A stretch of DNA of 64,000 bases, taken from the IMG/VR virus record IMGVR_UViG_3300033388_000803, positions 343 through 64,342 of that record. One strand, 5' to 3'. Positions 23,586-60,590 of this stretch are shown here, piece by piece (within the stretch, counting starts at the first letter, position 1; every line of letters begins with the position of its first letter). Made by a program: the position numbers and the translations under genes. This DNA is from a virus (lineage: Duplodnaviria; Caudoviricetes). The notes beneath the pieces were generated by a model, which saw nothing but the letters and a program-made list of their open reading frames with translations, was not told where the DNA came from and did no database searches.

Positions 23586-23618
23586 AGAATAGGGGGGATA
23601 AACTCCCCCCTTTCTTTT
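23586..23618 (+). terminator. intrinsic terminator after MCP
   Basis: AGGGGGGA-TAAAC-TCCCCCCT followed by TTCTTTT. Confidence 0.85.
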
Positions 23619-24792: not shown

Positions 24793-24828
24793 AAGAGAGG
24801 TCACAAAAAAAGTGACCTCTTTTTTTTT
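24793..24828 (+). terminator. intrinsic terminator
   Basis: AGAGGTCAC-A7-GTGACCTCT plus T-run. Confidence 0.9.
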
Positions 24829-26770: not shown

Positions 26771-29700
26771 ATGGATATTAACACTAATTTTATAGCAGGT
26801 AAAATGAATAAAAGCGTTGATGAACGCTTAATACCTAAAGGACAATACATAGACGCACTTAATGTTAGACTAGGATCAACAGAAACAACCGAAATAGGTG
26901 CAGTTGAAAATTCAAAAGGAAATACTATATTAACTGACATTGGGTATCAGGGAGTAACTCTTTCAAGCAATGCAACCTGTATAGGTGCTTTTGAAGATGG
27001 GGTTAATGAAAATATATATTGGTTTGTTCACGACCCTACTTCGGCCTTATCAGCTTCTGGTAAGATAGACATGATATTGTCTTATAATGTTTCTGGCCAA
27101 TCTACAACATATCATGTTGTTAGTGAAACTGTTTTAAATTTTAATCCTCTTTATTTAATTACTGGTATTGATTTAATTGAAGATTTATTGTTTTTTACAG
27201 ACGATATAAATCCACCTAGAAAAATAAATATTAATAGAAATTATCCTGAGCCAAATGTTTCAGGAGATCAAATAACTGAAGAAGAGTTAAATGTAATTGT
27301 GAAACCACCAGGGTTTAGTTCATACACAAATAGTTTAGGAGTTGTAGAAGAAGAATTACCTGCACCAACACTTGTTTTATCTAATGTCGTTGGTGATGAA
27401 AATTATATAAAAGATAAATTTATATGTTTTGCATATAGATATCAATATAGAGAAAATGAATATAGTGCTACTTCTTTGTTTACCACACCATCTTTTGAGC
27501 CAGGTCTATTTAAATACGATAAGGCAAATCAAAATAATGCTGGAATGGAAAACGTTTATAATAGCGTTGACATTACTTTTAATACAGGTGGCTCACTTGT
27601 TATAGCTATAGAGTTGCTATTTAAAGAATCGGCTACCAACACTATAAATGTAATTGAAAGGTTTGATAAGTCTGATTTAGGCTGGTCTGACAACGACCAA
27701 CAAACATTTCGTTTTACAAATTCTAAAATATATACTGTTTTAGGAAGCGATGAGTTATTGAGACTGTATGATAATGTTCCTAGATTTGCTAAGTCTCAAA
27801 CTATAATGGGCAACAGATTAATTTATGGACACTATATAGATCAATACGATATAGAAACAGCAGACGGACAACAAATACCTATAGACTTTAGAACAACGGG
27901 TTCTTCTGTAGGAATTGAAAGTGAAGTAGTATCTTTTGATTTATTAGGAATAGGTGATGCTAATCAAATAGACCCCGCAGTGGGAACATCTTTTTTTGTA
28001 CCGTTTTCTTATGGTAGATGGAATTTACCTAGCTCTAACATACCATTACCTATACTAAAAAATGCTGAGTTTAATGTAAAGGTAAAGATAACATCAACGG
28101 CTGCATATGCTCCTGGAGCACCTGGATATTTAGATTTAGGAGGAGATACAGCAGATCCTTTATTTCCTACTGGATTTAAAACTAACACTTTATCTAGTCA
28201 ACCCGAAATTTCTGTACGAATAATTGCTAGAAATAACTACGCTACATATATAGACTTTACTAATTCATTAGAGTTTCAAGAGGCTTTTGGAGTTGGAGTG
28301 CCTGGAACACCTGGTTCAACTATAACTCCCATTACCCCTGGAGCATCTTATGGGTTTTCTTTGTCTGATCAATTTTATGCATTAATACAACCCCCTACAA
28401 CTCCAACTTATGCTGTGGATTATGTTTTTAAAACAGCTGGTAAATGGGATCCAGGATCAGGAGCTCCTATACCAGCTCAAGAAGGGTATAAAATGGAATC
28501 GTTTTCTACAGGAGTAAGATTACAACAACCGTCAGTTCAATATCAGTATGATGACGGGGTGGGTAATATAGTTAATGTTTACGAATATTTTGCTTTTTCT
28601 GTTACATCAATTACTGTTGCTGGGCCTCCTGCTATTGGAACGTCTACCGACTGTACTATTTCTTTTTCAAATATATCTAACTCTGCCAGTTTACATAGTA
28701 ATAGAAATTTTGAAACAGGAATTATGTATATGGATGATTATGGAAGATCTACTACCGTTCTTGTTTCTCCTAATAATACTGTGTTTTTTCCAGCAGCCGA
28801 CTCTGTAAGTATAAATACTATTATTGCTACTGTAAATAATAAGCCTCCTTTTTGGGCTAGTCGTTATAAATTTTTTGTGAAACCATCTTTAGGTGCTTAT
28901 AATATAATTTATAGTGACGCAATATTTACCGATCAATTTGATCAAGGATTAGCATGGGTAAGGCTTGAAGGAGATGCTACCTCTATAGTTAATAAGAACG
29001 ATATATTAACTGTAAAAATACAGTCAGATGGACAAGTAGTTCCTAGGCTTGTTACTACTACAGTATTAGAAGTTGAAGCAAAAAATAGAGGAGGTACAGG
29101 TACAGGACAAGATAACAATTTACCTGCTGGAGCACCTGCTGGTTTATATATGTTAATACGCCCACAAGGATTTCGTGCATCAACCTCCGCTAATGCACTT
29201 ATAGATAACGGATATAAAAGTGTAGACGCAACTTCAGGTTTTGGAACTGTAGAGTATCCATGTTTTACTACAGATAGTGCAGGTAATCCATTAGTATACA
29301 ATTTACCACAGGGGTCTGAGGTATCACTGACTTTTAGAACATGGAGAGGATATGCGTGGTTTGCTAAATGCGATATGAATTATGAAACAGTTCCGTTTAA
29401 GTTTGAAGTAACTGCCTCTAGCACTGCACAAAATCTTAAAGACTTTTTTGATCAAGAAGGAATAAACCCTAACAACTTTATGCAAAACACAGAGTGTGTT
29501 GACGATATGAAGGCAGTTTATTATCCAACACAATATGCTATTGGACAAGGGCCATCAGACAGCTCTAGCCTTATACCAGAATTACAGTTTTGGTTTACTT
29601 CTGACAATTATTCTTCATCTTCAAGTGAATTATTTTTAAACGTAAGATCAATATTTCCAGTGGCTACTGGTTTTCTTAGAACCGACATAAGACCTGTAAA

Positions 29701-31723
29701 TACAGAAGTTCAAATTGAAGTAAATAGAAATAATAATTTTATGGCTTTTGAAACTAAAGCTGCTGTGTCTGATGCAGATTTATTTTTTGAGTCTTCTGAA
29801 TCTTACTCTATAAAACCAGATATTAATGGAGACTTAGCTCACTTTTCTAATAATAAAACAGGAGCACAAAATCAGGTTATTTCAACCAACACTCCAGCTA
29901 TTATTGAATTACCATTTTCTGATTGTTATAGTTTTGGTAATGGTATTGAAAGTTTCAGATATAAAGATCTTTCTACTTCTAACTTTTTTGTTATAGGAGA
30001 AAGGGTTTCTGCTGTTAGTAACACTTTGTTTGAGGAAGCAGATAGATTTGCTGGACTAACGTATAGTGGTGTTTTTAGCGGCCCATCTAATGTAAATAAT
30101 TTAAACGAATTTAATTTAGGGCTAGTAAACTTTAAAGACTGTGAATTAGTATATGGGCCTATAATGAAATTACACGCAAGACAAACAGATATATTAGTTT
30201 TACAAGAAGATAGAATATCATATGTTTTAGCTAACAAAAACTTAATAAGCGACTCTACTGGTGGGGGAGCTATAGTTTCTGTTCCAGAAATATTAGGGCA
30301 ACAAATAGCAAGAATAGAGGAGTATGGTATAAGCTTTAACCCAGAAAGTTTTACAAGCTGGGGGAGAGATATGTACTTTAGTGACACAAAAAGAGGAGCG
30401 GTAATAAAGTTGACTGGTGCTGGATTGGAAAGCGATACACTTGAGGTTGTGTCAGCTTTAGGAATGAGGTCTTATTTTAGAAATAAATTTGCGGATCAAT
30501 TAAACACACAAAAGCTTGGAGGCTATGACCCTTATATGGATGAATATGTTTTTTCCACAAACAATAAATTAGTTCCATTCCCTGTGCCAAATATAGAGTG
30601 TGGTACTCAAATTCAAAAAACCAACACCTCTTCACCATTAAGTTTTGTCGTAGATGTAACGGTAGCGACAGGAACTTTTGATATTGTTATTAATCCTGTA
30701 GGGTCTATGGATGTAAATGTTGTAGTTGTATACAATAATATTACCACAACAAATAATAATTTAACAGGGCCTACTACTATTTCTATAACTAAAGCCCAAC
30801 AATATCCAACTACCGCAACAGTAACGGTTACACCTAACGAGGAATCATCATTTAGGTTGTTTCCAAATTGCGTAGCTACACAAACATTAAATGTAGTGTC
30901 GGTTGTTTTAGGGTCGCCAATAAGTGGATTAATAGGAACTGGTGCTCAAACTATACATTATGAGTATAGTTGGACAAATGGTTCTTTTACAAGCCCGTTA
31001 GAGTCAAATCAAGTAACATTTAGCGGAACAGAAAATGTAAGCGAGTATATTATAAATACAGGACAAACCTCAATAGGCATGTATCCAGGTACTGGATCTA
31101 CAGTTACAATGAGAAGTAATAAAATTAATCCAGACACTTTTGTTTTTACAGACACAGAAAACAGGTTCTATGCAATAACAAGTAATTCGTTACCAGCAAC
31201 ATCTGGAGCTACATTTGATTTAACATTATTAACCAATCCATTAGCACCAATAGTAGGCTCTAATCCTGACCCTGTAACTAATGTAGATAATATTTATACA
31301 GCTATATCCCCAGCTCTTAATATAACATCAAGTACACAAACACTTTATTTAGTTTGGGACTTTAGAGATAGAAGAAATGAAGATTTTTGTTACTCAACAA
31401 TAGATGCAACTGACGCTTGTATAGGATGTACACCAGTATCAGGTTGTACAGAGTTTTCATCATCCGATGTGCAAGGGTCGTTTCCACAAGCTTGTAATGG
31501 TGGGGCTGGTATACCTATGAGATCAACTAATTTTTTCCATGACGGTACGGGAACTTTCCCACAAGTAGGAGATAAGGTTTACAAAACTCCAGGGCCTAAC
31601 CCAACAATACCTTGTAATCAAGGAGTTATAGCAGACCCTGGATATTATTATTTACAAAATGGAGATATTATGTTTATACAATCTATAACCTCTAATGTGA
31701 CAAGCATTTTACCTTGTCCTTAA
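26771..31723 (+). CDS. tail stabilization/muzzle protein, N-terminal part
   Basis: GKMNKSVDERL.P.GQY.DALNVR, LFFTDD.NPPRKIN, YGISFNPESF, GGYDP motifs. Confidence 0.8.
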   Translation: MDINTNFIAGKMNKSVDERLIPKGQYIDALNVRLGSTETTEIGAVENSKGNTILTDIGYQGVTLSSNATCIGAFEDGVNENIYWFVHDPTSALSASGKIDMILSYNVSGQSTTYHVVSETVLNFNPLYLITGIDLIEDLLFFTDDINPPRKININRNYPEPNVSGDQITEEELNVIVKPPGFSSYTNSLGVVEEELPAPTLVLSNVVGDENYIKDKFICFAYRYQYRENEYSATSLFTTPSFEPGLFKYDKANQNNAGMENVYNSVDITFNTGGSLVIAIELLFKESATNTINVIERFDKSDLGWSDNDQQTFRFTNSKIYTVLGSDELLRLYDNVPRFAKSQTIMGNRLIYGHYIDQYDIETADGQQIPIDFRTTGSSVGIESEVVSFDLLGIGDANQIDPAVGTSFFVPFSYGRWNLPSSNIPLPILKNAEFNVKVKITSTAAYAPGAPGYLDLGGDTADPLFPTGFKTNTLSSQPEISVRIIARNNYATYIDFTNSLEFQEAFGVGVPGTPGSTITPITPGASYGFSLSDQFYALIQPPTTPTYAVDYVFKTAGKWDPGSGAPIPAQEGYKMESFSTGVRLQQPSVQYQYDDGVGNIVNVYEYFAFSVTSITVAGPPAIGTSTDCTISFSNISNSASLHSNRNFETGIMYMDDYGRSTTVLVSPNNTVFFPAADSVSINTIIATVNNKPPFWASRYKFFVKPSLGAYNIIYSDAIFTDQFDQGLAWVRLEGDATSIVNKNDILTVKIQSDGQVVPRLVTTTVLEVEAKNRGGTGTGQDNNLPAGAPAGLYMLIRPQGFRASTSANALIDNGYKSVDATSGFGTVEYPCFTTDSAGNPLVYNLPQGSEVSLTFRTWRGYAWFAKCDMNYETVPFKFEVTASSTAQNLKDFFDQEGINPNNFMQNTECVDDMKAVYYPTQYAIGQGPSDSSSLIPELQFWFTSDNYSSSSSELFLNVRSIFPVATGFLRTDIRPVNTEVQIEVNRNNNFMAFETKAAVSDADLFFESSESYSIKPDINGDLAHFSNNKTGAQNQVISTNTPAIIELPFSDCYSFGNGIESFRYKDLSTSNFFVIGERVSAVSNTLFEEADRFAGLTYSGVFSGPSNVNNLNEFNLGLVNFKDCELVYGPIMKLHARQTDILVLQEDRISYVLANKNLISDSTGGGAIVSVPEILGQQIARIEEYGISFNPESFTSWGRDMYFSDTKRGAVIKLTGAGLESDTLEVVSALGMRSYFRNKFADQLNTQKLGGYDPYMDEYVFSTNNKLVPFPVPNIECGTQIQKTNTSSPLSFVVDVTVATGTFDIVINPVGSMDVNVVVVYNNITTTNNNLTGPTTISITKAQQYPTTATVTVTPNEESSFRLFPNCVATQTLNVVSVVLGSPISGLIGTGAQTIHYEYSWTNGSFTSPLESNQVTFSGTENVSEYIINTGQTSIGMYPGTGSTVTMRSNKINPDTFVFTDTENRFYAITSNSLPATSGATFDLTLLTNPLAPIVGSNPDPVTNVDNIYTAISPALNITSSTQTLYLVWDFRDRRNEDFCYSTIDATDACIGCTPVSGCTEFSSSDVQGSFPQACNGGAGIPMRSTNFFHDGTGTFPQVGDKVYKTPGPNPTIPCNQGVIADPGYYYLQNGDIMFIQSITSNVTSILPCP

Positions 31724-31904: not shown

Positions 31905-32657
31905 ATGGCAATAAAAGAAACTTTATCATATAGCGATGGAGTAAAAGGATGGCCATCTTTTTATTCTTTTTTACCCGATTATTTAATTGGAATGAATAGC
32001 TTTTTCTATTCGTTTCATCAAGGCCAACTTTATAGACACAATACTAATGAGCTTAGAAATAATTACTATGGTGTTCAGTATAACTCCAATATAACAGGAG
32101 TATTTAATGTTCAGCCACAGACTATTAAATTATTTAAAACAATATCTTTAGAAAGTGACGCTGCCTGGGGTGTGGAAACTTTAGAAACAGATTTAGGAAA
32201 TGGAGATATGTTAAGCACTTATTTTGAGCAAAAAGAAGGTGAGTGGTTTTCTTTTATTAGAAACAAAAGTACAACAGTCAACTTTAAACTAAGATCGGCT
32301 AACGGAATAGGGCAGATTGCAGCTGTTAACGTAGCTTTTGTAGGTATTGATGTAGTGTTTAATGTAAGCCTGGGAAGTATAATTAGTATTGGAGACACAT
32401 TATATCATCAGGTAACCCCAACATCTTCTCGACCTACAGGAATAATTACAGCTATTAATCAAGCAACAAACACAGTAACTATTGCAGTAGTATTAAATAT
32501 GCCCTTAGCAAATCAGTTTGCCTTTTATTATAAAGACCCTGTTGCTGAATCGCATGGAGCTCGTGGATATTTTATGAGATTTAAGTTAGAAAACACAGAC
32601 ACGACTCCAGTTGAACTGTTTTCTGTAGGTAGTAGTGTGATGAAAAGTTATCCATAG
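31905..32657 (+). CDS. tail stabilization/muzzle protein, C-terminal part
   Basis: TLSYS..VKGWPSFYSF.PD, K.FKTISLES, KEGEWF, G.RGYF motifs. Confidence 0.7.
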   Translation: MAIKETLSYSDGVKGWPSFYSFLPDYLIGMNSFFYSFHQGQLYRHNTNELRNNYYGVQYNSNITGVFNVQPQTIKLFKTISLESDAAWGVETLETDLGNGDMLSTYFEQKEGEWFSFIRNKSTTVNFKLRSANGIGQIAAVNVAFVGIDVVFNVSLGSIISIGDTLYHQVTPTSSRPTGIITAINQATNTVTIAVVLNMPLANQFAFYYKDPVAESHGARGYFMRFKLENTDTTPVELFSVGSSVMKSYP

Positions 32658-49173: not shown

Positions 49174-49184
49174 TATATTTTATT

Positions 49185-49217
49185 AAAAAAAAAGGAGGTC
49201 TTTCGACCTCCTCTTCA
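49185..49217 (-). terminator. intrinsic terminator (GAAA loop)
   Basis: Minus strand AGGAGGTC-GAAA-GACCTCCT plus T-run, between SSB and primase. Confidence 0.85.
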
Positions 49218-49223
49218 CAATTA

Positions 49224-50975: not shown

Positions 50976-51369
50976 TTTGATTTAGTTTAATTAGTTTTTG
51001 ACTATAATAAGAATATTTATTCATAACAAACTCCCGTTTTGTTTTTAAATTTTTAATAAACTTATCGTTTTTTCTTTGATTTACTTCTTCTTGCATTTTA
51101 ACCTTAATCATATTTAACTTTCTTACGCAGTTAGATATGGCTAATATAATGCAGCCTACATACCATCCATGAGTATAAAACATATTATATTCTTTAGATG
51201 TTATTTCTTGAAAGTAGTCTCCGTTTTTAGAACAATTTAAAATTTCTGTTTTGCTAGGATACTTACTTATTTTAACTCCAACATTAATAAAGCTAACATT
51301 AGAATTTCTTTCAATTCTCATTGATTCATCATTTGATGCTTGTGTATATATGTCGTCAATGTTATACAT
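50941..51369 (-). CDS. hypothetical protein
   Basis: 142 aa ORF in operon. Confidence 0.7.
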   Translation of the reverse strand: MYNIDDIYTQASNDESMRIERNSNVSFINVGVKISKYPSKTEILNCSKNGDYFQEITSKEYNMFYTHGWYVGCIILAISNCVRKLNMIKVKMQEEVNQRKNDKFIKNLKTKREFVMNKYSYYSQKLIKLNQNEKIKNSKHTR

Positions 51370-51655
51370 TCTTAAGTTGGCTAACTACTTCAGCATAGTC
51401 ACTGTCATTATCAACATGATCCTTTGCTATATTGTAACCATGAATTATTGTAGAGTGTGAAACTGTGTGTCCGTTCTCTTCCATAAACTTTTGTATATAT
51501 GATATTCTAATAGGACGTTCTCTTGATAAAAAGTATAGCATTTGTCTTGCGTCAACTATCTCTCTCTTCTTACTCTTAGTAAACATTTCATCCAGTGTTA
51601 AGTGAAACCTATCTGCTATTGCAGTAGCATACTTGTCAAATATTTCTCTTTTCAT
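51362..51655 (-). CDS. DnaA C-terminal (domain IV)-like HTH protein
   Basis: SKKREIVDARQMLYFLSRE...HSTIIHG, matching the DnaA DNA-binding signature. Confidence 0.8.
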   Translation of the reverse strand: MKREIFDKYATAIADRFHLTLDEMFTKSKKREIVDARQMLYFLSRERPIRISYIQKFMEENGHTVSHSTIIHGYNIAKDHVDNDSDYAEVVSQLKNV

Positions 51656-51897
51656 TTTATTTTATTTTCTTTTTTTAAATTTTTTATTTCATACTGAAGA
51701 TGGTGTATTGCTTTTTCTAAATCTTCTATATGTTTCTGTACAATACTCATTCCCTCTTCTCTCTTCTTTCCAGCCCTTAAAAGATAGGTAACTGCATTAC
51801 CTACATTATATGAACAAGAGAATCCGTAAACTACTTGTTCTGCTTCATAACCATTTTTACCTATATAATAATTAGGCTTATTTCTTATTTCTTTCAT
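51652..51897 (-). CDS. DUF3310/SaV-like protein
   Basis: P.YY, GNAV.Y..RAGKK, EDLEKA..L. Confidence 0.8.
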   Translation of the reverse strand: MKEIRNKPNYYIGKNGYEAEQVVYGFSCSYNVGNAVTYLLRAGKKREEGMSIVQKHIEDLEKAIHHLQYEIKNLKKENKIK

Positions 51898-52150
51898 ATC
51901 TATTTATAAATTCTTCTGTTAGTGTTTTATTTAATTTATACTTACTCATATCGTTTTTGACAATAACTCTTTCAGGTATGGGCATAGGATATTTACAAGC
52001 AGATACAAATCTACCTTTTATTTCTATTTTATCTGTTTCTTTAAAGAAATTATTTAGATCAATAAAATTTCTTCTATTATATATATTGTCTAATTTTATT
52101 TGTCTTTCCTTAACTAGAGACTCTACAAGATATGATGCTGATTCGTTCAT
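51878..52150 (-). CDS. hypothetical protein
   Basis: 90 aa with AT-rich leader. Confidence 0.7.
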   Translation of the reverse strand: MNESASYLVESLVKERQIKLDNIYNRRNFIDLNNFFKETDKIEIKGRFVSACKYPMPIPERVIVKNDMSKYKLNKTLTEEFINRYERNKK

Positions 52151-52167
52151 TTAATTTAATTTAATTT

Positions 52168-52306
52168 TTATAAGGAGGTAGCTAACAGTATTAACGTATT
52201 GTTGGCTTATGCCTTTTTAACTACCCCCCTATAACATAAAGAGTAAACATTTAATATTAAGGTATCTTACACCTATAAAATTATTGGGATTATTCCCACT
52301 CCTTAT
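52168..52306 (-). ncRNA. two adjacent multi-stem RNA structures with AUAA-loop hairpins
   Basis: 18-bp stem (52168-85/52217-34) with 3 G-U pairs only on minus strand; GGC-AUAA-GCC; UGGGA-AUAA-UCCCA; AGGUG/UACCU. Confidence 0.6.
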
Positions 52307-52437
52307 TTTGTTTTGTAATTGTTGATGATGATTTGCTTAAGAATTTGTTCGTTAAGCTTTTGTAACCACTGAATATATATTTTATTTGGTTTGTCCTTCA
52401 ACTTCTCTCTTAAAATTAATTCATGTACTTCCTTCAT
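52303..52437 (-). CDS. 44 aa hypothetical (not in ORF track)
   Basis: MKEVHELILREKLKDKPNKIYIQWLQKLNEQILKQIIINNYKTK*, TAATG coupling. Confidence 0.6.
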   Translation of the reverse strand: MKEVHELILREKLKDKPNKIYIQWLQKLNEQILKQIIINNYKTK

Positions 52438-52613
52438 TACCAATTAAAATTTAATGGTGTGTCTTTAAGCTGCTCTCTTTCTTTCTTCTGTCTTGTCTTA
52501 AGATTTTTCTCTCTCATCTTTTTGTACTCGCTTTTAACATACTCGCTCCAAGAATTGTAGTCTAATACTCTGTACTTGTAATTACTTAAAAATTTTCTAT
52601 AATCTTTATCCAT
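52437..52613 (-). CDS. small basic hypothetical protein
   Basis: Likely start MDKDYRKF (A-rich leader); upstream extension is structured RNA. Confidence 0.65.
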   Translation of the reverse strand: MDKDYRKFLSNYKYRVLDYNSWSEYVKSEYKKMREKNLKTRQKKEREQLKDTPLNFNW

Positions 52614-52631
52614 TTTTTTTTGTTTAAGTTT

Positions 52632-52831
52632 AAAAAAAACGAGGAAGAAACACGCCATACAGTTTCTAATTACATTGTTGATTTCGCCTAACATCAACTC
52701 GTATCTAAATAAATAAGTTGGCTTTGTTTATCCTTGTATCTACAAGTGTCTCATCCGTACATCACTATTTCAGACTGTGAATGTTCTTAGCTTGTAGAGT
52801 AGTTCAGGTATAACTTAGTTTATGTACCTGA
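52632..52831 (-). ncRNA. candidate structured small RNA / leader
   Basis: UCAGGUA/UACCUGA, UCUACAAG/CUUGUAGA, ACGAG/CUCGU junction with two GGCG-loop hairpins, U-tract. Confidence 0.5.
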
Positions 52832-52916
52832 TTTAATCATAAATACCTACCTATATTATATTTAGTTCAATTAGTGTGTAATATTACAACAAATTTTGAT
52901 TAATACCTAATGTTTT

Positions 52917-53786
52917 CTAAAAAAGTTTTGTCAAATCGTCTTCACTTCTAAGAATTGTCACTAATAATGCGTCTTCTTTGTGTTTTTCTTCAGCATAATC
53001 TTTGTTTGTGTACTCAATAACTTCTCCTGAATTCATATCGTAATCATTGTAGTCTAGCTTTTCTTTAGGAAAGTAATAGCTTACTGGACACAAGAATTCG
53101 TTAAACTCTTGTAGTTTTCTTGTATATCTATTGTATCGTTCTGTCTTTATCTTACTAGCTAATCTAAAATTCTTTATCTCTCCCCTTGTAGTTTGATTAA
53201 ACACATAAAAATTATCTACATGCTGACATTCTCTTTCGTAATGATATCTCCAAAGGTTTGTGTAATGATCTTTTTTTTCCTCTTCGGTATAATAATACTT
53301 ATCAATTACTTGCTCTTCGTACAACTGTGTGACAAGCCATAAGTTATCTAATAACTTCATTGATACTTCTTTGTTTAAGATGTGTACGTCATTTGAATTA
53401 AGAGCAGAAACTAATACACAGTCTTTACTTTTTAGTTCTGCAATTTTAACGCACAGTCTATATATTTCCCCATGCTCTTCATACCATGCTACAGAGCAGT
53501 TTTTATAATGAATTAAATATCCATTATGTTCAGTTCTTACTCTTGAAAATAGATGCCTAATATACTCTTCAGATTCAATCCAATCTATTGGCTTTACTTC
53601 TACCAATGTATTAGTGTTTATACTAACTATTGGAAACACATAATCATTTATATATTCTTGGGTATTTAAAACAAAATCAGCTAGAGAGATGTTACTGTCT
53701 ACTACTTGTACACAGTTTTTCTCTAAGCTGATGTCGTTTGAAAAATTTTTGCTACTTACTTCAGAAGATATAACAAATTGTTTCAT
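52917..53786 (-). CDS. hypothetical early protein
   Basis: 289 aa ORF. Confidence 0.75.
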   Translation of the reverse strand: MKQFVISSEVSSKNFSNDISLEKNCVQVVDSNISLADFVLNTQEYINDYVFPIVSINTNTLVEVKPIDWIESEEYIRHLFSRVRTEHNGYLIHYKNCSVAWYEEHGEIYRLCVKIAELKSKDCVLVSALNSNDVHILNKEVSMKLLDNLWLVTQLYEEQVIDKYYYTEEEKKDHYTNLWRYHYERECQHVDNFYVFNQTTRGEIKNFRLASKIKTERYNRYTRKLQEFNEFLCPVSYYFPKEKLDYNDYDMNSGEVIEYTNKDYAEEKHKEDALLVTILRSEDDLTKLF

Positions 53787-53802
53787 AAGTTTTTTTACAA
53801 AG

Positions 53803-54198
53803 TTAACTTATTATTTCTTTTATTTTTTGAATTGCTACCCATGAATCTTCGTTACCATATTCAACATTATCAATTACTTTGTTAATGTCTCTAATAGTAT
53901 AGTATCCATCATCTATTCTTACGTCAATATCCTCTTCTATATTAGCTTCAAGAACACTAACAATCCACTTTCCCTTATCTACTGCATTACATAGTTGTTG
54001 AATTTGGTCGCAATCGTCTGATGCCTCCCAACTATCTTCTTTTCCATTTCCAAGTACCCAATTTGCTAGTTCTTCTAATCCGTTTTTACTTACGAATCCG
54101 TATGTACTCATGTATCTGTCTTCAGTAATATCTATTAATTCTTCCTGAATTATTTTGTTTATTGCAAGATCTTTTTTATTCATTTTTTCTGTTTTCAT
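53803..54198 (-). CDS. acidic hypothetical early protein
   Basis: 131 aa ORF. Confidence 0.75.
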   Translation of the reverse strand: MKTEKMNKKDLAINKIIQEELIDITEDRYMSTYGFVSKNGLEELANWVLGNGKEDSWEASDDCDQIQQLCNAVDKGKWIVSVLEANIEEDIDVRIDDGYYTIRDINKVIDNVEYGNEDSWVAIQKIKEIIS

Positions 54199-54212
54199 TT
54201 TATTATTTTTAA

Positions 54213-54453
54213 TTAATTACTAATTGAGAATCTAATTGTTCCGTCCTTTACACTACGGTATCCAGCATAGACGGTTTCTTCTGTTATTTGCTCCACTTCT
54301 TTTATTATTTCATGACTACCAAAACCTAATCCTCTTGGAATAGAGTAGTGAAAATGTTCTATTCCGTTTGTAGCTTTTTGCTTTGCTATTTCAATAATAG
54401 TCCAAACTGTTTTTCTAAATTTTTTGCTGATTTTTATTTACTTTTATTTTCAT
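54213..54453 (-). pseudogene. frameshifted 79 aa gene (extra A in A6 run)
   Basis: ATG frame MKIKVNKNQQKI* stops; +1 frame continues FRKTVWTIIEIAK...FSISN* without its own start; span 241 nt. Confidence 0.55.
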
Positions 54454-54769
54454 TTAATTGTTTTTTATATTCATAATCATTTATCAATTCTTCTAAACTT
54501 CCCTCAGACAATTCTTCATAGTCTTTTGGATTAAAGGATTCGTCTCTTAAATCAAAGTTGAGATAGGTTTGTCCCCCATGCCCATCATTCCAAATAGATA
54601 CACCTTTAAAATTTGTTTTGCATTCGTATCCTAATCCTCTTCGTGTTTCGAAATAACGCACACCTTTTACTTTTAATTCAGGAGATAAGCATTCATGTTC
54701 CATAACCTCTCCCTCACTATCTAAAATATCGTAGCAACATTTGTCGCAAGTTATATACTCTTTTTTCAT
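54434..54769 (-). CDS. hypothetical early protein (CxxC...HxC)
   Basis: Likely start MKKEYITCDKC; NDGHGG motif. Confidence 0.7.
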   Translation of the reverse strand: MKKEYITCDKCCYDILDSEGEVMEHECLSPELKVKGVRYFETRRGLGYECKTNFKGVSIWNDGHGGQTYLNFDLRDESFNPKDYEELSEGSLEELINDYEYKKQLNENKSK

Positions 54770-54770
54770 A

Positions 54771-55274
54771 TTAATCAATATTAAATTCAACACTATCATA
54801 CTCTAGTCTTCCGTCATCTATTATCGCTTGTTCGATATCCTTATTCTCAGGAAACTCTTTTTCAATCATTTGAATGCTTATTGATTCAATCTCTAACTCA
54901 TGCCCTGAATCTAAAACTTCAAACAATCTACAGATGTATGAGTGTTTGTGAGTATAGTATCTTTTTAGTAAAGTCTTTAACAACTTGTAGTCTTCATGTT
55001 GTTGACAATCAAAGTTTTTCATCCTCAATGTAAATGAATGATAATCCCCTTGACAATATCCTGATGCAAATACACTATCAACACAATTATACTCTTCTTT
55101 GTCCCATCCTAAATAACACGCATAACTTCTTTTTGGAAGAATATGTTTATGTCTGCTGACGTCTTGCTCTATTAGTATTGGCAAGTCTTCTGTAATGTTT
55201 TGAATTAGTTCGGCATACAACTCCCAAACCATTGTATTATCATAATCGTTTTCTACTCTTATTACTTTTTTCAT
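54771..55274 (-). CDS. hypothetical early protein
   Basis: 167 aa, GYCQGD motif. Confidence 0.75.
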   Translation of the reverse strand: MKKVIRVENDYDNTMVWELYAELIQNITEDLPILIEQDVSRHKHILPKRSYACYLGWDKEEYNCVDSVFASGYCQGDYHSFTLRMKNFDCQQHEDYKLLKTLLKRYYTHKHSYICRLFEVLDSGHELEIESISIQMIEKEFPENKDIEQAIIDDGRLEYDSVEFNID

Positions 55275-55302
55275 ATTATATTATATTAATTAATAACTTC
55301 GG

Positions 55303-55333
55303 TAAATATACATTTAAATATTTAATAAACAAA
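55303..55333 (-). promoter_or_regulatory. Bacteroidota-type promoter variant TTTG-N19-TATATTTA
   Basis: Minus strand, upstream of 55274. Confidence 0.45.
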
Positions 55334-55380
55334 ATTTAAACATGTTACCTTCCTTTCGTAAAATGGGAATACTTAATACC

Positions 55381-55884
55381 TTATAAGTCTGTATATATTT
55401 TGTGTGCGTCTTTGAAGACGTATGCAGTCTTCTCTCTTCTGTATTTAAAGTCTACTGTCTCAATATGCATTATTAACATTTTTTCTTCAGGAGGATATCC
55501 TATTTCTTCTGCTGCTCTTTCAACTACAAGTCTTCCCATATCATTATCCCCATCATCTCCTTTCCACTCTAATTCTCCCTCAGCATATATGTCTTTAGTT
55601 TTACTCCACTTAATTAGTTTTTTCAAGAAGAATATTGTCCATTCTTTACCTTGATATGTTTTTTCATATCCCATACATCTGAATACTCCATAAGTTCCTG
55701 AATCATCATTATAGTTTTTAATCTCGAATCCACACCATATTGATGGAAACTCTCTTCTTTGGTCTCCGAATTCAAATTCACTGTCATGTCTCTCATCTGT
55801 TATTCCTTCCCATTCTTTTAATTCTTGTGTGGTAAACGGTCTGTTTGTTCTTAACTGTCCGTTCCAATCTGTATTGTATCCCAT
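55381..55884 (-). CDS. hypothetical early protein (MGY.T.W.G family)
   Basis: True start likely MGYNTDWNG at 55884; P..WC...., W.G.D..D.G motifs. Confidence 0.75.
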   Translation of the reverse strand: MGYNTDWNGQLRTNRPFTTQELKEWEGITDERHDSEFEFGDQRREFPSIWCGFEIKNYNDDSGTYGVFRCMGYEKTYQGKEWTIFFLKKLIKWSKTKDIYAEGELEWKGDDGDNDMGRLVVERAAEEIGYPPEEKMLIMHIETVDFKYRREKTAYVFKDAHKIYTDL

Positions 55885-55975
55885 TTGTTTAGTTTTAATT
55901 ATGACACTATTGTCTTCTACTACGAAATCCCCACTACTTTCATAGTGAGGCATCTCGCAGAACAAACAACACAAA
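55885..55975 (-). ncRNA. intergenic hairpin element E1 plus AUAG hairpin
   Basis: CUGCGAGAU-G-CCUCACUAU-GAAA-GUAGUGGGG-AUUUCGUAG-UAGA-A-GACA-AUAG-UGUC; G-U pairs give strand. Confidence 0.75.
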
Positions 55976-56182
55976 TTAACGATGTAAATCTTTTATATCT
56001 GTAATATCTATAGTTCCGTATTTCTTCTTAACTCTTTTTAATTGAGACATTGCATTTGTATACTCTTTGTACTCATCTTGAGTGCAACTTTTAAACATGC
56101 TCCTCGAGATCTTTTTGTGTATGGTTTGGTATGTGTAGTACCAATGCTGTATATTCTTTTCTAACTCTTCAAATTCTGTCAT
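55976..56182 (-). CDS. hypothetical early protein
   Basis: 68 aa. Confidence 0.7.
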   Translation of the reverse strand: MTEFEELEKNIQHWYYTYQTIHKKISRSMFKSCTQDEYKEYTNAMSQLKRVKKKYGTIDITDIKDLHR

Positions 56183-56187
56183 TTTAT

Positions 56188-56679
56188 TTATTTTAAATTA
56201 GTAATTAGTCTAAATTGATAATCGTAATCATCTACAAGAGAACAATAATATTTATCTCCATTCTCTTCTGTATCAGAATACTCTTCTAAATCTTCTCCGT
56301 ACTCTTTGTCTAGCCATTCTATTTGCTCTTCATATTGTTTCTTTGTGAGCATTGCACAATCATTTACATTGCATAGAATCATAAACGCATAAGCATCTTT
56401 TATTTCCCATACTTGATAGCTACCACAATTATCGTCATAGGCATCCCAAAAGTATCCGTCTCCATCTACTCCCTTGTCTATTTGTGCATACTCATCAGAG
56501 TATCTTGTTACATCTTTTGCGTCTCCATTAGCATTGCTCAATGCTCTTTTATATGCCCATTTGAATGCTGATTTTTTGTATGCAAATTGTTTTGTATCTA
56601 TTCCATTTTCTGAAGAATATCCATCTCCGTTCCATGTATCGATAACTATATATTTTTTAATGTTGTTTTTTAGTCTCAT
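56188..56679 (-). CDS. acidic hypothetical early protein
   Basis: 163 aa, IDTWNGDGYS motif. Confidence 0.75.
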   Translation of the reverse strand: MRLKNNIKKYIVIDTWNGDGYSSENGIDTKQFAYKKSAFKWAYKRALSNANGDAKDVTRYSDEYAQIDKGVDGDGYFWDAYDDNCGSYQVWEIKDAYAFMILCNVNDCAMLTKKQYEEQIEWLDKEYGEDLEEYSDTEENGDKYYCSLVDDYDYQFRLITNLK

Positions 56680-56918
56680 TATTGTAATTGGTTTTCGTTA
56701 ATATAATCTACTATATCATCCCATATTCCCTCTAACTTCTCTGTCACATCGTCATTGTTTAGCATCAGTTTTGCTATCTCAATGTTGTGGTATCTAGGTG
56801 TACTTCTGTCCTCTGCTTCAGGGCAATCTGTCTCCCAATAAGTCACTCCAAGAACATTGTTCTTGCTTAACTCATAACAAGTATATTTAGTTTGTGTGTA
56901 GCTGTTTGTTGTAATCAT
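56679..56918 (-). CDS. hypothetical early protein
   Basis: Likely start MITTNSY (56918); the upstream extension in the ORF track reads through the ribozyme. Confidence 0.7.
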   Translation of the reverse strand: MITTNSYTQTKYTCYELSKNNVLGVTYWETDCPEAEDRSTPRYHNIEIAKLMLNNDDVTEKLEGIWDDIVDYINENQLQ

Positions 56919-56944
56919 GTTATTTAATTTAATTGGTATCTTAT

Positions 56945-56998
56945 GATACTGACGAGCATTTCTGCTCGTTTCGGACATTGAGTCCTCATCAGAGTATC
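56945..56998 (-). ncRNA. hammerhead ribozyme, type I
   Basis: GAUACU-CUGAUGA-GGAC-ucaau-GUCC-GAA-ACGAGCA-gaaa-UGCUCGU-C^AGUAUC: complete catalytic core and three perfect stems. Confidence 0.95.
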
Positions 56999-57267
56999 TA
57001 GCTATTGTAATCCTCAAGCTGAGTCTTGAATCCCTCTAAGCATTCTAATAGTCCATGCTTGTCGTACCCCATTTTCTCTAGCCCAAAGTATGCTTTAACA
57101 CCTTTGAGAGTGTAATGTCTGTGTGGCTTTAATCCCCTTATAAACATCTTTAGTTCTGCGATAGATAATACTAGATTGTACCATCCTTTATTACCATCTC
57201 TACCATTGATGTTCATCGGCTTGTCAAAGTCCTTACCGAATTGTGTATCTCTTACTGTGTATTCCAT
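56998..57267 (-). CDS. hypothetical early protein
   Basis: 89 aa; stop codon overlaps first base of hammerhead. Confidence 0.75.
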   Translation of the reverse strand: MEYTVRDTQFGKDFDKPMNINGRDGNKGWYNLVLSIAELKMFIRGLKPHRHYTLKGVKAYFGLEKMGYDKHGLLECLEGFKTQLEDYNS

Positions 57268-57353
57268 TTGTTATTGTTTAATTATGACACTATTGTCGTC
57301 TACCTAGAAAACCCCAATGCGATGAGCATTGAGGCACTAGGAGTGAGACTAGA
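57268..57353 (-). ncRNA. intergenic hairpin element E2 plus AUAG hairpin
   Basis: CCUAG-UG-CCUCAAUGC-UCAUC-GCAUUGGGG-UUUU-CUAGG-UAGA-C-GACA-AUAG-UGUC. Confidence 0.78.
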
Positions 57354-57656
57354 TTAAGCTAGAGTGATAGCTAGATTAACTGTTCTTGATGGGGTACCGT
57401 TAATCTTTGTTGCTAGGTGTAGGTAACCACTATTACCAACAATCCATTTAGGAGAATCAGCATCTTCCTCATCGATATTGAATACCTTGTTAAGTTTAAA
57501 AACTAAATCAGATGTGTAGTCTGCTTGTATTCTTAATGCTGCTCTGTCTCCATCCCTACTACAATCGTAATCCGTTATTGATATTGAGTAAAACTTATCT
57601 AGTGTTTCAGTTGATAATACCTTGTCTAAGGTTTGGATAATTTCTATTTTTGTCAT
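57354..57656 (-). CDS. hypothetical early protein
   Basis: 100 aa. Confidence 0.75.
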   Translation of the reverse strand: MTKIEIIQTLDKVLSTETLDKFYSISITDYDCSRDGDRAALRIQADYTSDLVFKLNKVFNIDEEDADSPKWIVGNSGYLHLATKINGTPSRTVNLAITLA

Positions 57657-57744
57657 CGTTTGTTTGTTTAATTTGTGGAGGATTATTCCTCTACCTAGAA
57701 AAGCCCATAGCGATTAACTATGAGCTACTAGGAGTAAGGTAAGG
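57657..57744 (-). ncRNA. intergenic hairpin element E3 plus AUAA hairpin
   Basis: CCUAG-U-AGCUCAUAG-UUAAUCG-CUAUGGGCU-UUU-CUAGG-UA-GAGGA-AUAA-UCCUC. Confidence 0.78.
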
Positions 57745-57933
57745 TTAGATGTTATCGTAAACCATGTCTTCATGCATCAAGACTATCTTGGTTTGTAGTC
57801 CTCTCATTGCCTGAAATTCAGGAGTATTGTAGTGAATATTATCATCTCTCATATCTCTGATTCTATCTGCGATAGTCATTCTTAGTGTTTCTATCTCGTT
57901 TAACGTCCATTCGGTAGTGATTTCTCTAGTCAT
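57745..57933 (-). CDS. first early gene, hypothetical
   Basis: Likely start MTREITT downstream of promoter. Confidence 0.7.
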   Translation of the reverse strand: MTREITTEWTLNEIETLRMTIADRIRDMRDDNIHYNTPEFQAMRGLQTKIVLMHEDMVYDNI

Positions 57934-57963
57934 AATTTGTTTAATTTTTGTTTGATTTATGTG

Positions 57964-57996
57964 CAAATATATATAAATTAATTATTATAAAACAAA
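57964..57996 (-). promoter_or_regulatory. early promoter TTTG-N21-TATATTTG
   Basis: Full Bacteroidota -33/-7 consensus on minus strand. Confidence 0.8.
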
Positions 57997-58015
57997 TAAA
58001 TAGACATCTAATTTT

Positions 58016-58028
58016 TAATGTATTGATT
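58016..58028 (-). promoter_or_regulatory. IHF-like binding site
   Basis: Minus strand AATCAA-TACA-TTA = WATCAANNNNTTR. Confidence 0.45.
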
Positions 58029-58227
58029 GTCAGTCAGTTACACAGGTGTGTTTCACTGCTTTTTGTTTGCTATTTGCACACTTCGATGGGGTATAAAGAC
58101 GCAGTTCTTTGTCCCTTAAAACAATGATCATTGTATTTTATGCTCTCATATCTAGTGGAATGTGGGGTAATGTAGGGGAAAATCCCCCTGAATCTGCACA
58201 ACTATGCAGTTTGAAATGGGAACGATG

Positions 58228-58262
58228 CTGGACGCAGCCAGTACGACACTGGACGCAGCCAG
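58228..58262. repeat. 14-bp direct repeat CTGGACGCAGCCAG x2 (21-bp period)
   Basis: 58228-58241 and 58249-58262; related TGCGTCAGCCA near 58292. Confidence 0.85.
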
Positions 58263-58425
58263 ATGAAAACAAAAAGCCAAAAAAATCCGAGTGCGTCAGC
58301 CATATCTAGTACCCCCCCTAGTGAAAAAAATCGGTTTTAATTTTAAAAAAAATGCTGTGTAGTGTAGTATTATCCTCAACCTCTAAATGTCTAACAAAAA
58401 TTTATTATCTTTACAAAAAAAAGTC

Positions 58426-58641
58426 ATGGAATACAACAGTAACACTTCAGATTATGTAAATGGCCTATACGTTAAGGACGGTAGGTTAATCAATGGACGC
58501 CCAGATGGTGTGTCAGGTATTGAGGAAGCATCGATGTATAGAAAACAAATGAAGAAGCAATACAAAATAGATTGTATAGCTGATGGTATTGAGAGAGCTA
58601 AGATGCGAATGAATAATGACAGAGATATATACGAGTATTAA
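58426..58641 (+). CDS. hypothetical protein, stand-alone unit
   Basis: Likely start MEYNSN after TATCTTTA (58406-13); followed by terminator. Confidence 0.7.
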   Translation: MEYNSNTSDYVNGLYVKDGRLINGRPDGVSGIEEASMYRKQMKKQYKIDCIADGIERAKMRMNNDRDIYEY

Positions 58642-58670
58642 AGAGATCCCGTTTAGTTTGATTAGTAGTG

Positions 58671-58705
58671 AAAGAGAGAAGACATAAAGTTTTCTCTTTT
58701 TTTTT
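58671..58705 (+). terminator. intrinsic terminator
   Basis: AGAGAAGAC-ATAAA-GTTTTCTCT plus T-run. Confidence 0.7.
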
Positions 58706-58731
58706 GTAAAAGACAGGTAAAAGACAACAAA

Positions 58732-58836
58732 TGGCAGACTTATGGCAGACTTTTGGCAGACCTTATTGTTTAGATAACTTACTTTAACTTATTGATTCTC
58801 AGTTATTTATATTTATATTATTTATTTATGGCAGAC
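58732..58836. repeat. iteron-like TGGCAGAC repeats (putative origin)
   Basis: 58732, 58743, 58754 (11-bp period) and 58829; IHF-consensus at 58785-58797; AT-rich tract 58850-58910. Confidence 0.75.
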
Positions 58837-58940
58837 TTTTAGTAGTCAAAATAGAATATAATAAAAAAAATATATATAGAAAAATATATATAGCTATAAA
58901 AACAAAAAAATTCCTGTCCTTGTCATATAATAAATTTTGT

Positions 58941-58948
58941 TATATTTG
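58941..58948 (+). promoter_or_regulatory. -7 element TATATTTG of groEL operon
   Basis: TAnnTTTG 25 nt upstream of ATG. Confidence 0.7.
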
Positions 58949-58973
58949 TGTCTAATTTAATTAAATATACTTT

Positions 58974-60590
58974 ATGAAATCTCAGGGATACATACCAAAG
59001 GACTTGTCGTTTGACGATGAAGCTCGCCACAAATTAATTCAAGGAATAACTAAAATTTCAAAAGCCGTAAAGAGCACATTAGGGCCTTTAGGTAAGACTG
59101 TGCTTATAGAATCTGCCGATCATTTAAAAGGGATTACTATAACTAAAGACGGAGTTACTGTAGCACAGTCAGTATTCTTAGATGATCCAATAGAAAACCT
59201 TGCAATACAAATGATGAAGGATGCAGCTAGTCGAACGGCTAATACAGCTGGTGACGGAACAACTACAGCTATTGTATTGACAGAAGCTATTGTAATGGCA
59301 GGACAAAAGTATTTAGAAAAAGGATGCAACATAACTGAAGTTATAAAATACATTAATGACTATACTAAAGAAATTGTAAAAAGTTTAACTAAGAACTCAA
59401 AGAAAGTAACTCCAGCAAGACTATTAGACGTAGCTTGTATATCAGCTAATAATGACAAGGCGATTGGTAAGATAATTGCTGACGCTTATAATAAGGTGGG
59501 TGTAAACGGTATTGTTACTGTGGAGAACTCAATGACATCAGAAACATATGCTGAGGTTACAAACGGTATAAAGATTGCCAGAGGATACACATCTAATATG
59601 TTTATCAATAATCAAAAGAAAGATGAGTGTGTATTAGAGGGGGTTAAGATATTAGTTTGTGATGCTGAGATAAGTAGTGTGTTACAAATTGAGAATATAC
59701 TAAAACCTATTATACAAAACCAAGACAAGCTTTTAATTATAGGCCCATGTCATGGTAATGTTATTAATACCTTAGCAGCTAATGTTGTTCGTAATGGACT
59801 AAAGTTCTGTAATATTATACCACCAAACTTTGGATATAAGTCAACTGAGCTAATGAGTGATATTGCTTTTGCTGTTAATGCAAAGTTCTTTAGCGAGAAG
59901 ACTGGTGATGATTTAAGTTTAATCAGAATGGAGGACTTAGGTTATGCTGATAAAATAGTATCTAGTCTAGAGACCACTATTATATTTAAGGAAGATGAGA
60001 AACCCGAAGAAACTAACAAACGTATATTTCAACTAAAGGTACAGCAAGAAAACACCACGATAAAGCATGAGCGTGAGTTTATTAATGAGCGTATAGCTAG
60101 TTTAGCTGGAGCAATAGGATGTATATTTGTAGGAGGTAACTCTGATGTAGAGCAAAAAGAATTGTATGACAGGGTTGATGACTCAGTGTGTGCAGTAAGA
60201 TCAGCTTTAGATGAAGGTATAATTGCTGGTGGAGGACTAGCACTACTAAGAGAGTCGATTAGTTTATTAAATAAATCTAAAGTAGACAGTAAGGAAAATG
60301 AAAACTTAGCCAGGCTAATACTGTCAACTGCCTTACAAGCTCCAATAAATCAAATATGCAATAATGCTGAGATAGAAATTGAATGGATTATGGAGCACAT
60401 ATATAATAATAAACATAACTTTGGGTTTGATGTAAAGAACGAAGAGTATGGTGATATGTTTAAGATGGGAATTATAGATCCTTTAAAGGTAACCAAGAAT
60501 GCCTTGCTAAATGCAGTAAGTGTAGCTACAACTATATTAAGTACCAATGCTATTATAACCCATAAAAGACAAAGTCAAAGTGATGATTAA
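58974..60590 (+). CDS. groEL: chaperonin GroEL (phage type)
   Basis: TLGP.G, ITKDGVTVA, AGDGTTTA, ISAN, GI.AGGG, GIIDP.KV; no GGM tail. Confidence 0.97.
   Translation: MKSQGYIPKDLSFDDEARHKLIQGITKISKAVKSTLGPLGKTVLIESADHLKGITITKDGVTVAQSVFLDDPIENLAIQMMKDAASRTANTAGDGTTTAIVLTEAIVMAGQKYLEKGCNITEVIKYINDYTKEIVKSLTKNSKKVTPARLLDVACISANNDKAIGKIIADAYNKVGVNGIVTVENSMTSETYAEVTNGIKIARGYTSNMFINNQKKDECVLEGVKILVCDAEISSVLQIENILKPIIQNQDKLLIIGPCHGNVINTLAANVVRNGLKFCNIIPPNFGYKSTELMSDIAFAVNAKFFSEKTGDDLSLIRMEDLGYADKIVSSLETTIIFKEDEKPEETNKRIFQLKVQQENTTIKHEREFINERIASLAGAIGCIFVGGNSDVEQKELYDRVDDSVCAVRSALDEGIIAGGGLALLRESISLLNKSKVDSKENENLARLILSTALQAPINQICNNAEIEIEWIMEHIYNNKHNFGFDVKNEEYGDMFKMGIIDPLKVTKNALLNAVSVATTILSTNAIITHKRQSQSDD

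Follow-up and report, generated by a model that had tools for sequence, protein, structure and literature searches.

Intrinsic terminators are GC-rich hairpins followed directly by a U-rich tract of about 6-9 nt, and they stand at the end of a transcription unit; the slot after a capsid gene is a classic place for a leaky terminator or a 3' stabiliser. RNase III sites of the T7 early type are coaxial double-stranded stems that span about two helical turns and contain an internal loop, and they split the early polycistronic RNA of that phage into single-gene messages. We take the early spacers of T7 to be such sites, the one between genes 0.7 and 1, which carries no such annotation in the T7 record, presumably being the RNase III site R1. 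Self-cleaving RNAs have also been reported from phage messages: hammerhead ribozymes flanking single phage genes are read, in an excerpt of one report (PMC3088659), as processing long transcripts, and an extract of another (PMC4604425) places the discovery of new ribozyme classes in ribozyme neighbourhoods and describes the Pistol ribozyme as a fold of stems P1, P2 and P3 with 10 conserved nucleotides, in which the P1 loop forms a pseudoknot with the P2/P3 junction. T4-like phages carry PeSLs, which are defined as composite terminator/promoter stem-loop cassettes (PMC4122927).

Here we describe E, an RNA motif family of marine phages that is real, specific to one strand and marked by covariation. 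E shares with the hammerhead and Pistol ribozymes of phages its strand, its slot between a stop codon and an A-rich leader, and its clade, while it is unlike the hammerhead in having no CUGANGA, GAAA and UH core around a three-stem junction. It also differs from the Pistol, as set out in the extract cited (PMC4604425), in being without P1-P2-P3 and a pseudoknot, and the Pistol model RF02679 is silent in the E region at E-value ≤10. Like the PeSLs (PMC4122927), E recurs as a stem-loop cassette beside small, variable early genes and at indel junctions; unlike them, its cassette contains no recognisable promoter.

A phage with an early minus-strand operon

The window, a stretch of 64,000 nucleotides, covers almost all of a 64,342-bp record that is rated complete and has a G+C content of 33%. 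Its structural genes include a terminase, a portal protein and two proteins with Crassvirus muzzle domains (Pfam), and Flavobacterium podophages are its sole distant relatives among GenBank phages. A Shine-Dalgarno-like word is present at -20 to -4 in 2 of the 73 predicted genes, and the gene leaders are 51% A and 7% G with recurrent AAUUAAA-type strings. From the Flavobacterium podophage relatives and these A-rich leaders poor in Shine-Dalgarno words we infer a Bacteroidota-type host; in such hosts translation appears to start without Shine-Dalgarno pairing. The minus strand is the gene strand at ~43.5-57.9 kb. Bacteroidetes-type promoters have the consensus TTTG-N-TAnnTTTG, to which the window holds 4 matches against 4.39 expected; the only intergenic one lies 5' of the first minus-strand gene, where its position fits a candidate host-type promoter (Table 1).

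Table 1. Coordinates of the elements and genes discussed, numbered along the window
Feature	Position	Strand	Details
Three large ORFs, 844-1323 aa	4551-15018	+	internal direct repeats
Capsid-like gene	22100-23566		
Intrinsic terminator	23591-23611	+	right after the capsid-like gene; long U-rich tail
Intrinsic terminator	24793-24823	+	long U-rich tail
1650-aa protein	26771-31723	+	muzzle-domain match
250-aa protein	31905-32657	+	muzzle-domain match
Intrinsic terminator in spacer	49174-49223	-	long U-rich tail; nine-U run
Palindromic hairpin	52285-52298		UGGGAAUAAUCCCA; in a 286-nt spacer
Second hairpin after E1	55903-55914	-	GACA AUAG UGUC; ATG at 55884
E1 hairpin	55914-55964	-	lower stem CUGCG/CGUAG extended by AGAU/AUUU; upper stem CCUCACUA/UAGUGGGG; UAGA
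Spacer with hammerhead	56919-56997		30 nt from hammerhead to ATG at 56918
Hairpin alternative to hammerhead	56936-56949		GUAUC AUAA GAUAC; stem I 3' strand plus downstream bases
Type I hammerhead	56945-56998	-	stem I GAUACU/AGUAUC, CUGAUGA, stem II, GAAA, stem III, GUC; predicted cleavage 56951/56950
Second hairpin after E2	57286-57297	-	GACA AUAG UGUC; within the 21-nt block common to E1; ATG at 57267
E2 hairpin	57297-57344	-	lower stem CCUAG/CUAGG; upper stem CCUCAAUGC/GCAUUGGGG with U.G; UUUU, then GUAGA
Second hairpin after E3	57678-57691	-	GAGGA AUAA UCCUC; then A-rich leader, ATG at 57656
E3 hairpin	57688-57735	-	lower stem CCUAG/CUAGG; upper stem GCUCAUAG/CUAUGGGC with U.G; UUUU, UAGA
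Divergent AT-rich region	57934-58973		~1 kb
Candidate host-type promoter	57964-57996	-	TTTG-N-TAnnTTTG; 5' of first minus-strand gene
GroEL-like chaperonin gene	58974-60590	+	phrog_5725, 429 bits

Three homologous hairpins separate early genes

E1, E2 and E3 are homologous minus-strand hairpins between co-directional early genes. The initial annotation had described, from the letters of the window, a lower stem, a U-rich internal region, an upper stem bearing a U.G pair and GUAGA, and this layout is found as described when the copies are read on the minus strand. Its interval of 57268-57744 is correct for E2 and E3; E1 lies outside it, some distance further along the operon (Table 1). Each copy has a lower stem of 5 bp, which a short asymmetric loop separates from an upper stem of 8-10 bp with the U.G pair; the U-run, the 3' strand of the lower stem and UAGA come next, in that order. 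E2 and E3 are predicted to fold alike, with 5 bp in the lower stem, 10 bp in the upper stem and a 1/3 loop between them. Whole cassettes fold with z-scores against shuffles of -5.58 (E3), -5.54 (E2) and -5.54 (E1), values equalled by 0 of 200 shuffles, and a small second hairpin and an A-rich leader come between each copy and the next ATG. The RNA-run material, which is uninformative on E, consists of assembled contigs only, from relatives 85-99% alike; these bridge E1, E2 and E3, and single contigs end at 55949, 55922 and 57691.

E1 and E2 share, as claimed, an identical block of 21 nt, which is part of repeat D13, and more broadly have 59 nt in common at 83% identity, extending into the start of the next gene. 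E2 and E3 form repeat D14, and the two words reported for them are indeed exact in those two copies only: TCTACCTAGAAAA at 57299 and 57690, and ACTAGGAGT at 57336 and 57727. A search of the genome with CTAGGTAGA returned 0 forward and 2 reverse occurrences, that is, no further copy. Once mismatches are allowed, the short words do not exceed chance (TCTACCTAGAAAA, 5 matches against 4.13 expected; ACTAGGAGT, 11 against 15.24), so the case for E rests on the family and its covariation.

E is a strand-specific, covarying RNA family

We recruited 80 related IMG/VR loci via the primase gene of the window, hereafter the primase group. A covariance model built from 11 copies, R1, finds 42 sites in the window and these 80 loci, 41 of them on the gene strand. 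A gapped DNA pattern scanned over viral contigs gave at least 125 matches in the loci examined, and among the matches listed at least 57 have three or more further upper-stem pairs. A second covariance model, R2, finds 88 sites in 88 sources at E-value ≤0.05, nearly all of them on the gene strand and 73 of them distinct, which provides 73 natural variants of an element about 45 nt long; within the primase group, 48 of 49 E copies are on the gene strand. The three window copies score 69.0 (E3), 69.4 (E2) and 54.4 bits (E1) with R1, and 48.9, 52.2 and 49.7 bits, respectively, with R2.

In the R2 alignment, 87.1% of cells are paired, against 69.7% in shuffles (0 of 500 reach the observed value) and 39-54% when the partners are slid. 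In the upper helix 97.1% of cells are paired, and both partners have changed in 7 of the 9 pairs. The G.U pairs of E are compatible with the sense strand only, and the earlier proposal of a strand-specific, covarying RNA motif is borne out by these two observations. Compensatory change, sense-only G.U pairs and the gene-strand bias together indicate selection on the transcript, and not merely a repeat.

Sequence conservation is concentrated at the foot of the hairpin, under a stem top that varies freely. Within the 73-element set, part of which was chosen by a pattern containing the conserved words themselves, the near-invariant features are the stem base CCUCA/UGGGG, its U.G wobble (68/73), the UUU columns (72-73/73) and a G-UA box (73/73) that sits five bases after the UUU run. 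The run itself is 3-5 U long and is followed by a conserved G/C-rich GGUGG. The same features appear in the 31 distinct primase-group elements, which were chosen without the pattern: UUU comes right after the G-rich 3' arm in 30 of them, and GTA is present in all 31.

Outside the upper hairpin, support for a common structure is uneven. The shared 5-bp lower stem is present in E1-E3 as the initial annotation had it, and is not a family-wide feature, being fully paired in only 30 of 71 elements. A strict register test counts 4.28 of 5 pairs where permuted partners give 3.97 ± 0.06, a score that none of 300 permutations reached, and a looser pairing test shows no excess (5.38 against 5.33 in shuffles). 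The apparently bulged U, taken at first for a shared feature, does not hold family-wide: the U-A pair of the extension forms in 44 of 73 elements and the next pair in 25 of 72, and we discarded the conserved outer helix since its pairing is not kept across the family. A pseudoknot of the terminal loop was likewise dropped, because complementarity between loop and flank across the family is no higher than for shuffled loops (3.92 against 4.02), and pairing of the U/G-rich upstream flank with the A-rich leader (-7.56 against -7.67 kcal/mol) gives no long-range interaction. A script flagged the second hairpin in 41 of 78 E contexts; its stems covary in relatives (GGCA AUAA UGCC, GAGGG CUAU UCCUC, GAAGCA/UGCUUC). 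The refuting condition of the initial annotation, covariation no greater than in generic terminator hairpins, applies by half: covariation in E is strong, and yet it lies in an upper stem that is itself terminator-like, with that of the lower stem being only modestly above chance.

E lies between a stop codon and the next start

A same-strand ORF stop precedes E by a median of 14 nt in 74 of 78 distinct contexts, a distance at which the start of E is clear of the footprint of the terminating ribosome, and a same-strand ATG ORF starts a median of 26 nt after it in 75 of 78. Distances from E to the ATG cluster around 10 nt and around 25-33 nt, and contexts of the longer kind bear the second hairpin. 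E cassettes contain no sigma-70-type promoter (region count 60, against a shuffle mean of 70.0) and no TAnnTTTG motif. E adjoins small ORFs of unknown function, and a search for a gene partner found no window protein that recurs in more than 10 of 40 E-bearing loci.

E belongs to phages. Its strict 21-base form occurs in 24 viral loci of the set versus 3 stretches in 185,579 prokaryote genomes, and one of those three forms a true hairpin; its contig, at 34% G+C, was binned with an Aliivibrio MAG. The Aliivibrio-labelled contig L213 (35 kb, 34% G+C) carries two E elements scoring 55.2 and 54.2 bits along with homologues of the GroEL region of the window, and is probably a phage contig of the E-bearing clade that was binned with a bacterial MAG. 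A blastn search with one E element against 50,697 GenBank phage records yielded 5 chance-level matches; a match in Vibrio phage LV6, considered as a cultured phage with E, proved to be a plain terminator without an R2 match and was set aside.

A second phage group carries E directly after the gene for the major head protein, which was the upstream ORF in 3 of 3 loci tested; the window has a canonical terminator (23591-23611) in the corresponding slot. In these three (L169, L100 and L202) the protein is of the HK97 type (phrog_10), and an ORF of ~50 aa starts ~16 nt after the G-UA box; two further loci, L177 and L157, have upstream ORFs of the same size. E is thus present in two groups of phages with different capsid families, which suggests that it is read by the host.

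Ribozymes occupy the same slot

The initial annotation linked E to motifs found beside ribozymes, and E does have ribozymes for neighbours. In the window, a type I hammerhead occupies the spacer of another early gene (Table 1); its minimum free energy fold has the three stems, and its centroid fold is the alternative hairpin. A script finds 20 canonical type I hammerheads across the window and related loci; their stems covary, and each lies 15-30 nt before an ATG. A looser version of the script found no antisense hammerheads in the primase group. The early region of a related phage, L083, contains two Pistol ribozymes (1494-1563 and 1760-1830, plus strand; Rfam RF02679) scoring 57.3 and 62.2 bits against a gathering score of 34.5, and each ends ~15-25 nt before an ATG, in the type of slot used by E and the hammerheads. 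One marine phage clade thus places three RNA devices, hammerhead, Pistol and E, in one inter-cistronic slot, a natural experiment on why phage messages are punctuated.

E itself matches none of the ribozymes described so far that we compared it with, in line with what had been noted from the letters: the hammerhead core words are absent from E1-E3, and no ribozyme model matches them. Scanned with Rfam 15, the whole window gives 0 matches at the gathering score (twister, twister-sister, hatchet, HDV-like, RAGATH-6 and RAGATH-18 included), and at E-value ≤10 the intervals 51000-59000, 55850-57800 and 57268-57360 give chance-level matches only (CRISPR-DR25, C0465, IRES_RhPV). These scans found the L083 Pistols and did not report the hammerheads, evident as they are, that of the window being overlooked even on a 96-nt slice. 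E is accordingly without an Rfam family, and Rfam includes only some RAGATH families, of which RF02686 and RF03064 are named (PMC13085918).

Could E, alone or with the second hairpin, be a new minimal class of self-cleaving ribozyme that stands in for the hammerhead and the Pistol? By analogy with these, it would cut the polycistronic phage mRNA just 5' of Shine-Dalgarno-free starts in Bacteroidota-type hosts. Guilt by association speaks for this reading, as the three RNAs occupy equivalent slots in a single clade, and so does the invariance of some unpaired or wobble positions. The architecture is nevertheless very simple, with freely variable terminal loops and few conserved unpaired bases (UUU and G-UA), and offers neither loop-to-flank complementarity nor long-range flank pairing; the second hairpin is flagged in barely more than half of the contexts (41/78), the upper hairpin resembles ordinary host terminators, and no ribozyme covariance model matches. 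We therefore regard self-cleavage by E as quite improbable.

Among the 81 primase-group sources, 33 have E, 15 have hammerheads, 11 have both and 44 have neither, many of the last with little upstream sequence. E is directly followed by a hammerhead core in 1 of 77 E contexts, that of L015. In this phage, 96% related to that of the window, positions 1300-1465 correspond to window positions 56919-57353 and the 89-aa gene at 56998-57267 is absent; E2 is fused to the hammerhead at a shared TAGA, and the hammerhead has a long insertion in stem III. L015 is an example of gene loss or gain at cassette borders. An orthologous gene, 75% identical, is preceded by the hammerhead in the window and by E in L028, and the small second hairpin follows both E and hammerheads.

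The L015 junction, the 59 nt that E1 and E2 share into the start of the next gene, and the small ORFs of unknown function that E flanks would all fit a DNA-level repeat cassette whose main effect is recombination shuffling small early genes, as PeSLs do in T4-like phages (PMC4122927), any role of the RNA being incidental. Against such a cassette, the upper stem stays paired through compensatory change, the G.U pairs suit the sense strand alone, and 48 of 49 primase-group copies lie on the gene strand; of the explanations discussed here we consider it the least probable.

In a further reading, E would be a site for a protein endoribonuclease, either host RNase III or a single-strand cutter (RNase Y/E) acting at the G-UA that lies between E and the second hairpin. 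Cleavage would turn the early polycistronic RNA into messages of one gene each, leaving the upstream product with a 3' hairpin and starting the downstream product at the small second hairpin and leader. E has the slot of the self-cleaving hammerheads and of the L083 Pistols, is rarely found in one spacer with a hammerhead (1/77), has its place taken by a hammerhead next to a 75%-identical orthologue, and shares the second hairpin with hammerhead spacers; the invariant G-UA keeps a set spacing to the hairpin and might be where the bond is cut. E also lies between cistrons of a polycistronic early RNA, like RNase III sites of the T7 early type. The resemblance extends to other aspects of the T7 sites: these too are hairpins between cistrons of an early podophage operon that the host transcribes, their stem bases are kept from site to site, and in both an asymmetric internal loop divides the lower stem from the upper one. 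The predicted fold of the T7 0.7/1 spacer, with 5 bp, a 2/3 loop and 9 bp, has almost the geometry of E2 and E3.

E departs from the T7 early sites, however, in its invariant U-run and G-UA, the former being absent from the T7 spacers, in its shorter total helix, which at 14-18 bp in the window copies is short for RNase III, and in a lower stem that is not kept family-wide (fully paired in 30/71, with 5.38 against 5.33 in shuffles by the looser test). Pfam, moreover, identified no phage nuclease of a known RNA-cutting family. We consider a protein-nuclease site less likely than not.

A terminator-derived punctuation hairpin as a tentative reading

The window also contains intrinsic terminators with long U-rich tails, on both strands (Table 1), with which E can be compared. 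Like intrinsic terminators, E lies just beyond a stop codon and forms a stable hairpin in which U residues follow the G-rich 3' arm without a gap. Unlike them, it has a run of only 3-5 U with GGUGG-UA behind it, its weak lower stem closes over that run, and a co-directional gene starts 10-33 nt on; intrinsic terminators end transcription units, whereas a co-directional ORF comes after E in 75 of 78 contexts. When R2 was run on 151 sampled Bacteroidota genomes at E-value ≤0.001, it returned 5 sites in 5 genomes, all of them ordinary A-tract/hairpin terminators. Four of these have 6-7 U and one has four, and none has GGUGG; 3 of the 5 share with E the CCUC/GGGG base with its U.G wobble. E is set apart from host terminators by its strict pattern, which is essentially absent from the 185,579 prokaryote genomes.

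The structure of E, its conservation, its strand and its constant location, past one stop codon and ahead of the following start, are established. E most likely marks gene boundaries on long messenger RNAs. As to how, our tentative choice, to which we give a probability of roughly 0.42 on the basis of sequence comparison, is that E may be a leaky, terminator-derived punctuation hairpin, both attenuator and 3' cap, in polycistronic phage mRNA, the hairpin being read by host machinery. Of the functions first proposed, RNase III site, attenuator or new ribozyme, the data lean to a terminator-derived attenuator and 3' cap or to a protein-nuclease site, the ribozyme having little beyond association. 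The terminator reading draws on the covarying, 97.1%-paired upper hairpin with UUU directly after its G-rich 3' arm, on the location of E a median of 14 nt past a stop codon and, in the second phage group, after the capsid gene, and on the fact that R2 picks out ordinary Bacteroidota terminators. Hairpin and U-run would form the core of E, given that the lower stem is only modestly supported family-wide, and termination would have to be leaky, because a co-directional ORF begins a median of 26 nt on with no promoter-like motif between.

Under the terminator reading, the upper hairpin, whose 3' arm is G-rich and whose U-run is short, would make host RNA polymerase pause and, in some rounds of transcription, terminate. 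Partial termination could then grade expression along the operon, and the upstream message would keep the hairpin at its 3' end as a protective cap. In rounds of read-through, polymerase would go on to synthesise the lower stem's 3' strand, which may close over the U-run, and would continue through the small second hairpin and the A-rich, Shine-Dalgarno-free leader into the next gene.

Several observations speak against E as a terminator. Its U-run is short, a co-directional gene follows closely, and its slot is also used by hammerhead and Pistol ribozymes, which cut RNA and do not end transcription; the invariant G-UA box, five bases after the U-run, is unaccounted for. A conserved stem base, U.G pair and G-UA under a free stem top indicate a sequence-reading partner that termination would not need, and because neither the G-UA box nor the U.G pair is explained we keep bolder readings of E in consideration.

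In one of these, E binds or recruits a regulatory factor. An antitermination factor, of the NusG family or another, might read the non-template GGTGGTA behind a pause hairpin, or an RNA-binding protein might control the stability or translation of neighbouring genes. Such a factor would make sense of sequence-specific conservation (stem base, U.G, UUU, G-UA and their fixed spacing) beneath a freely varying stem top, and there is a likeness to ops, the RfaH element: the commonest octamers of E, GGTGGTAA/G, agree with the ops core GGCGGTAG at 6-7 of its 8 positions, and the invariant G-T-A corresponds to ops G5-T6-A7, which are contacted by RfaH according to an excerpt of its description (PMC5995543). 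The likeness of an 8-mer to one of many short motifs is weak evidence, however, and the ops C3:G8 pair has no counterpart: T at position 3 goes with G in 21 cases, A in 19, C in 14 and T in 5, so that positions 3 and 8 do not covary. Furthermore, ops occurs once per 5' leader whereas E recurs after single genes, and Pfam found no NusG/KOW protein in the phage. We consider a factor-binding role for E doubtful, and well short of probable.

These readings differ in what they would mean. If E terminates transcription, or if a host enzyme cuts it, then protein-dependent and ribozyme-dependent punctuation would be interchangeable in these phages; if E self-cleaves or recruits a specific factor, it would represent a new RNA class or a new regulatory code.

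Other features of the window

Virion RNA polymerases with hairpin promoters were considered as an origin of the hairpins and rejected, as no ORF of at least 300 aa contains DxDxD, the motif of two-barrel RNA polymerases, and the G.U pairs are sense-only. The two muzzle-domain proteins, of 1650 and 250 aa, match crAss_MUZ and crAss_MUZ_C; a 2508-aa protein adjoining them is without the DxDxD polymerase motif and without an informative family. The palindromic hairpin in the 286-nt spacer resembles the second hairpin after E3. The GroEL-like chaperonin gene points away from the early minus-strand operon, from which it is separated by the AT-rich divergent region. Finally, the three large ORFs near the start of the window have many internal direct repeats in common (families D1-D15), as in repetitive tail-fibre or adhesin-like proteins.
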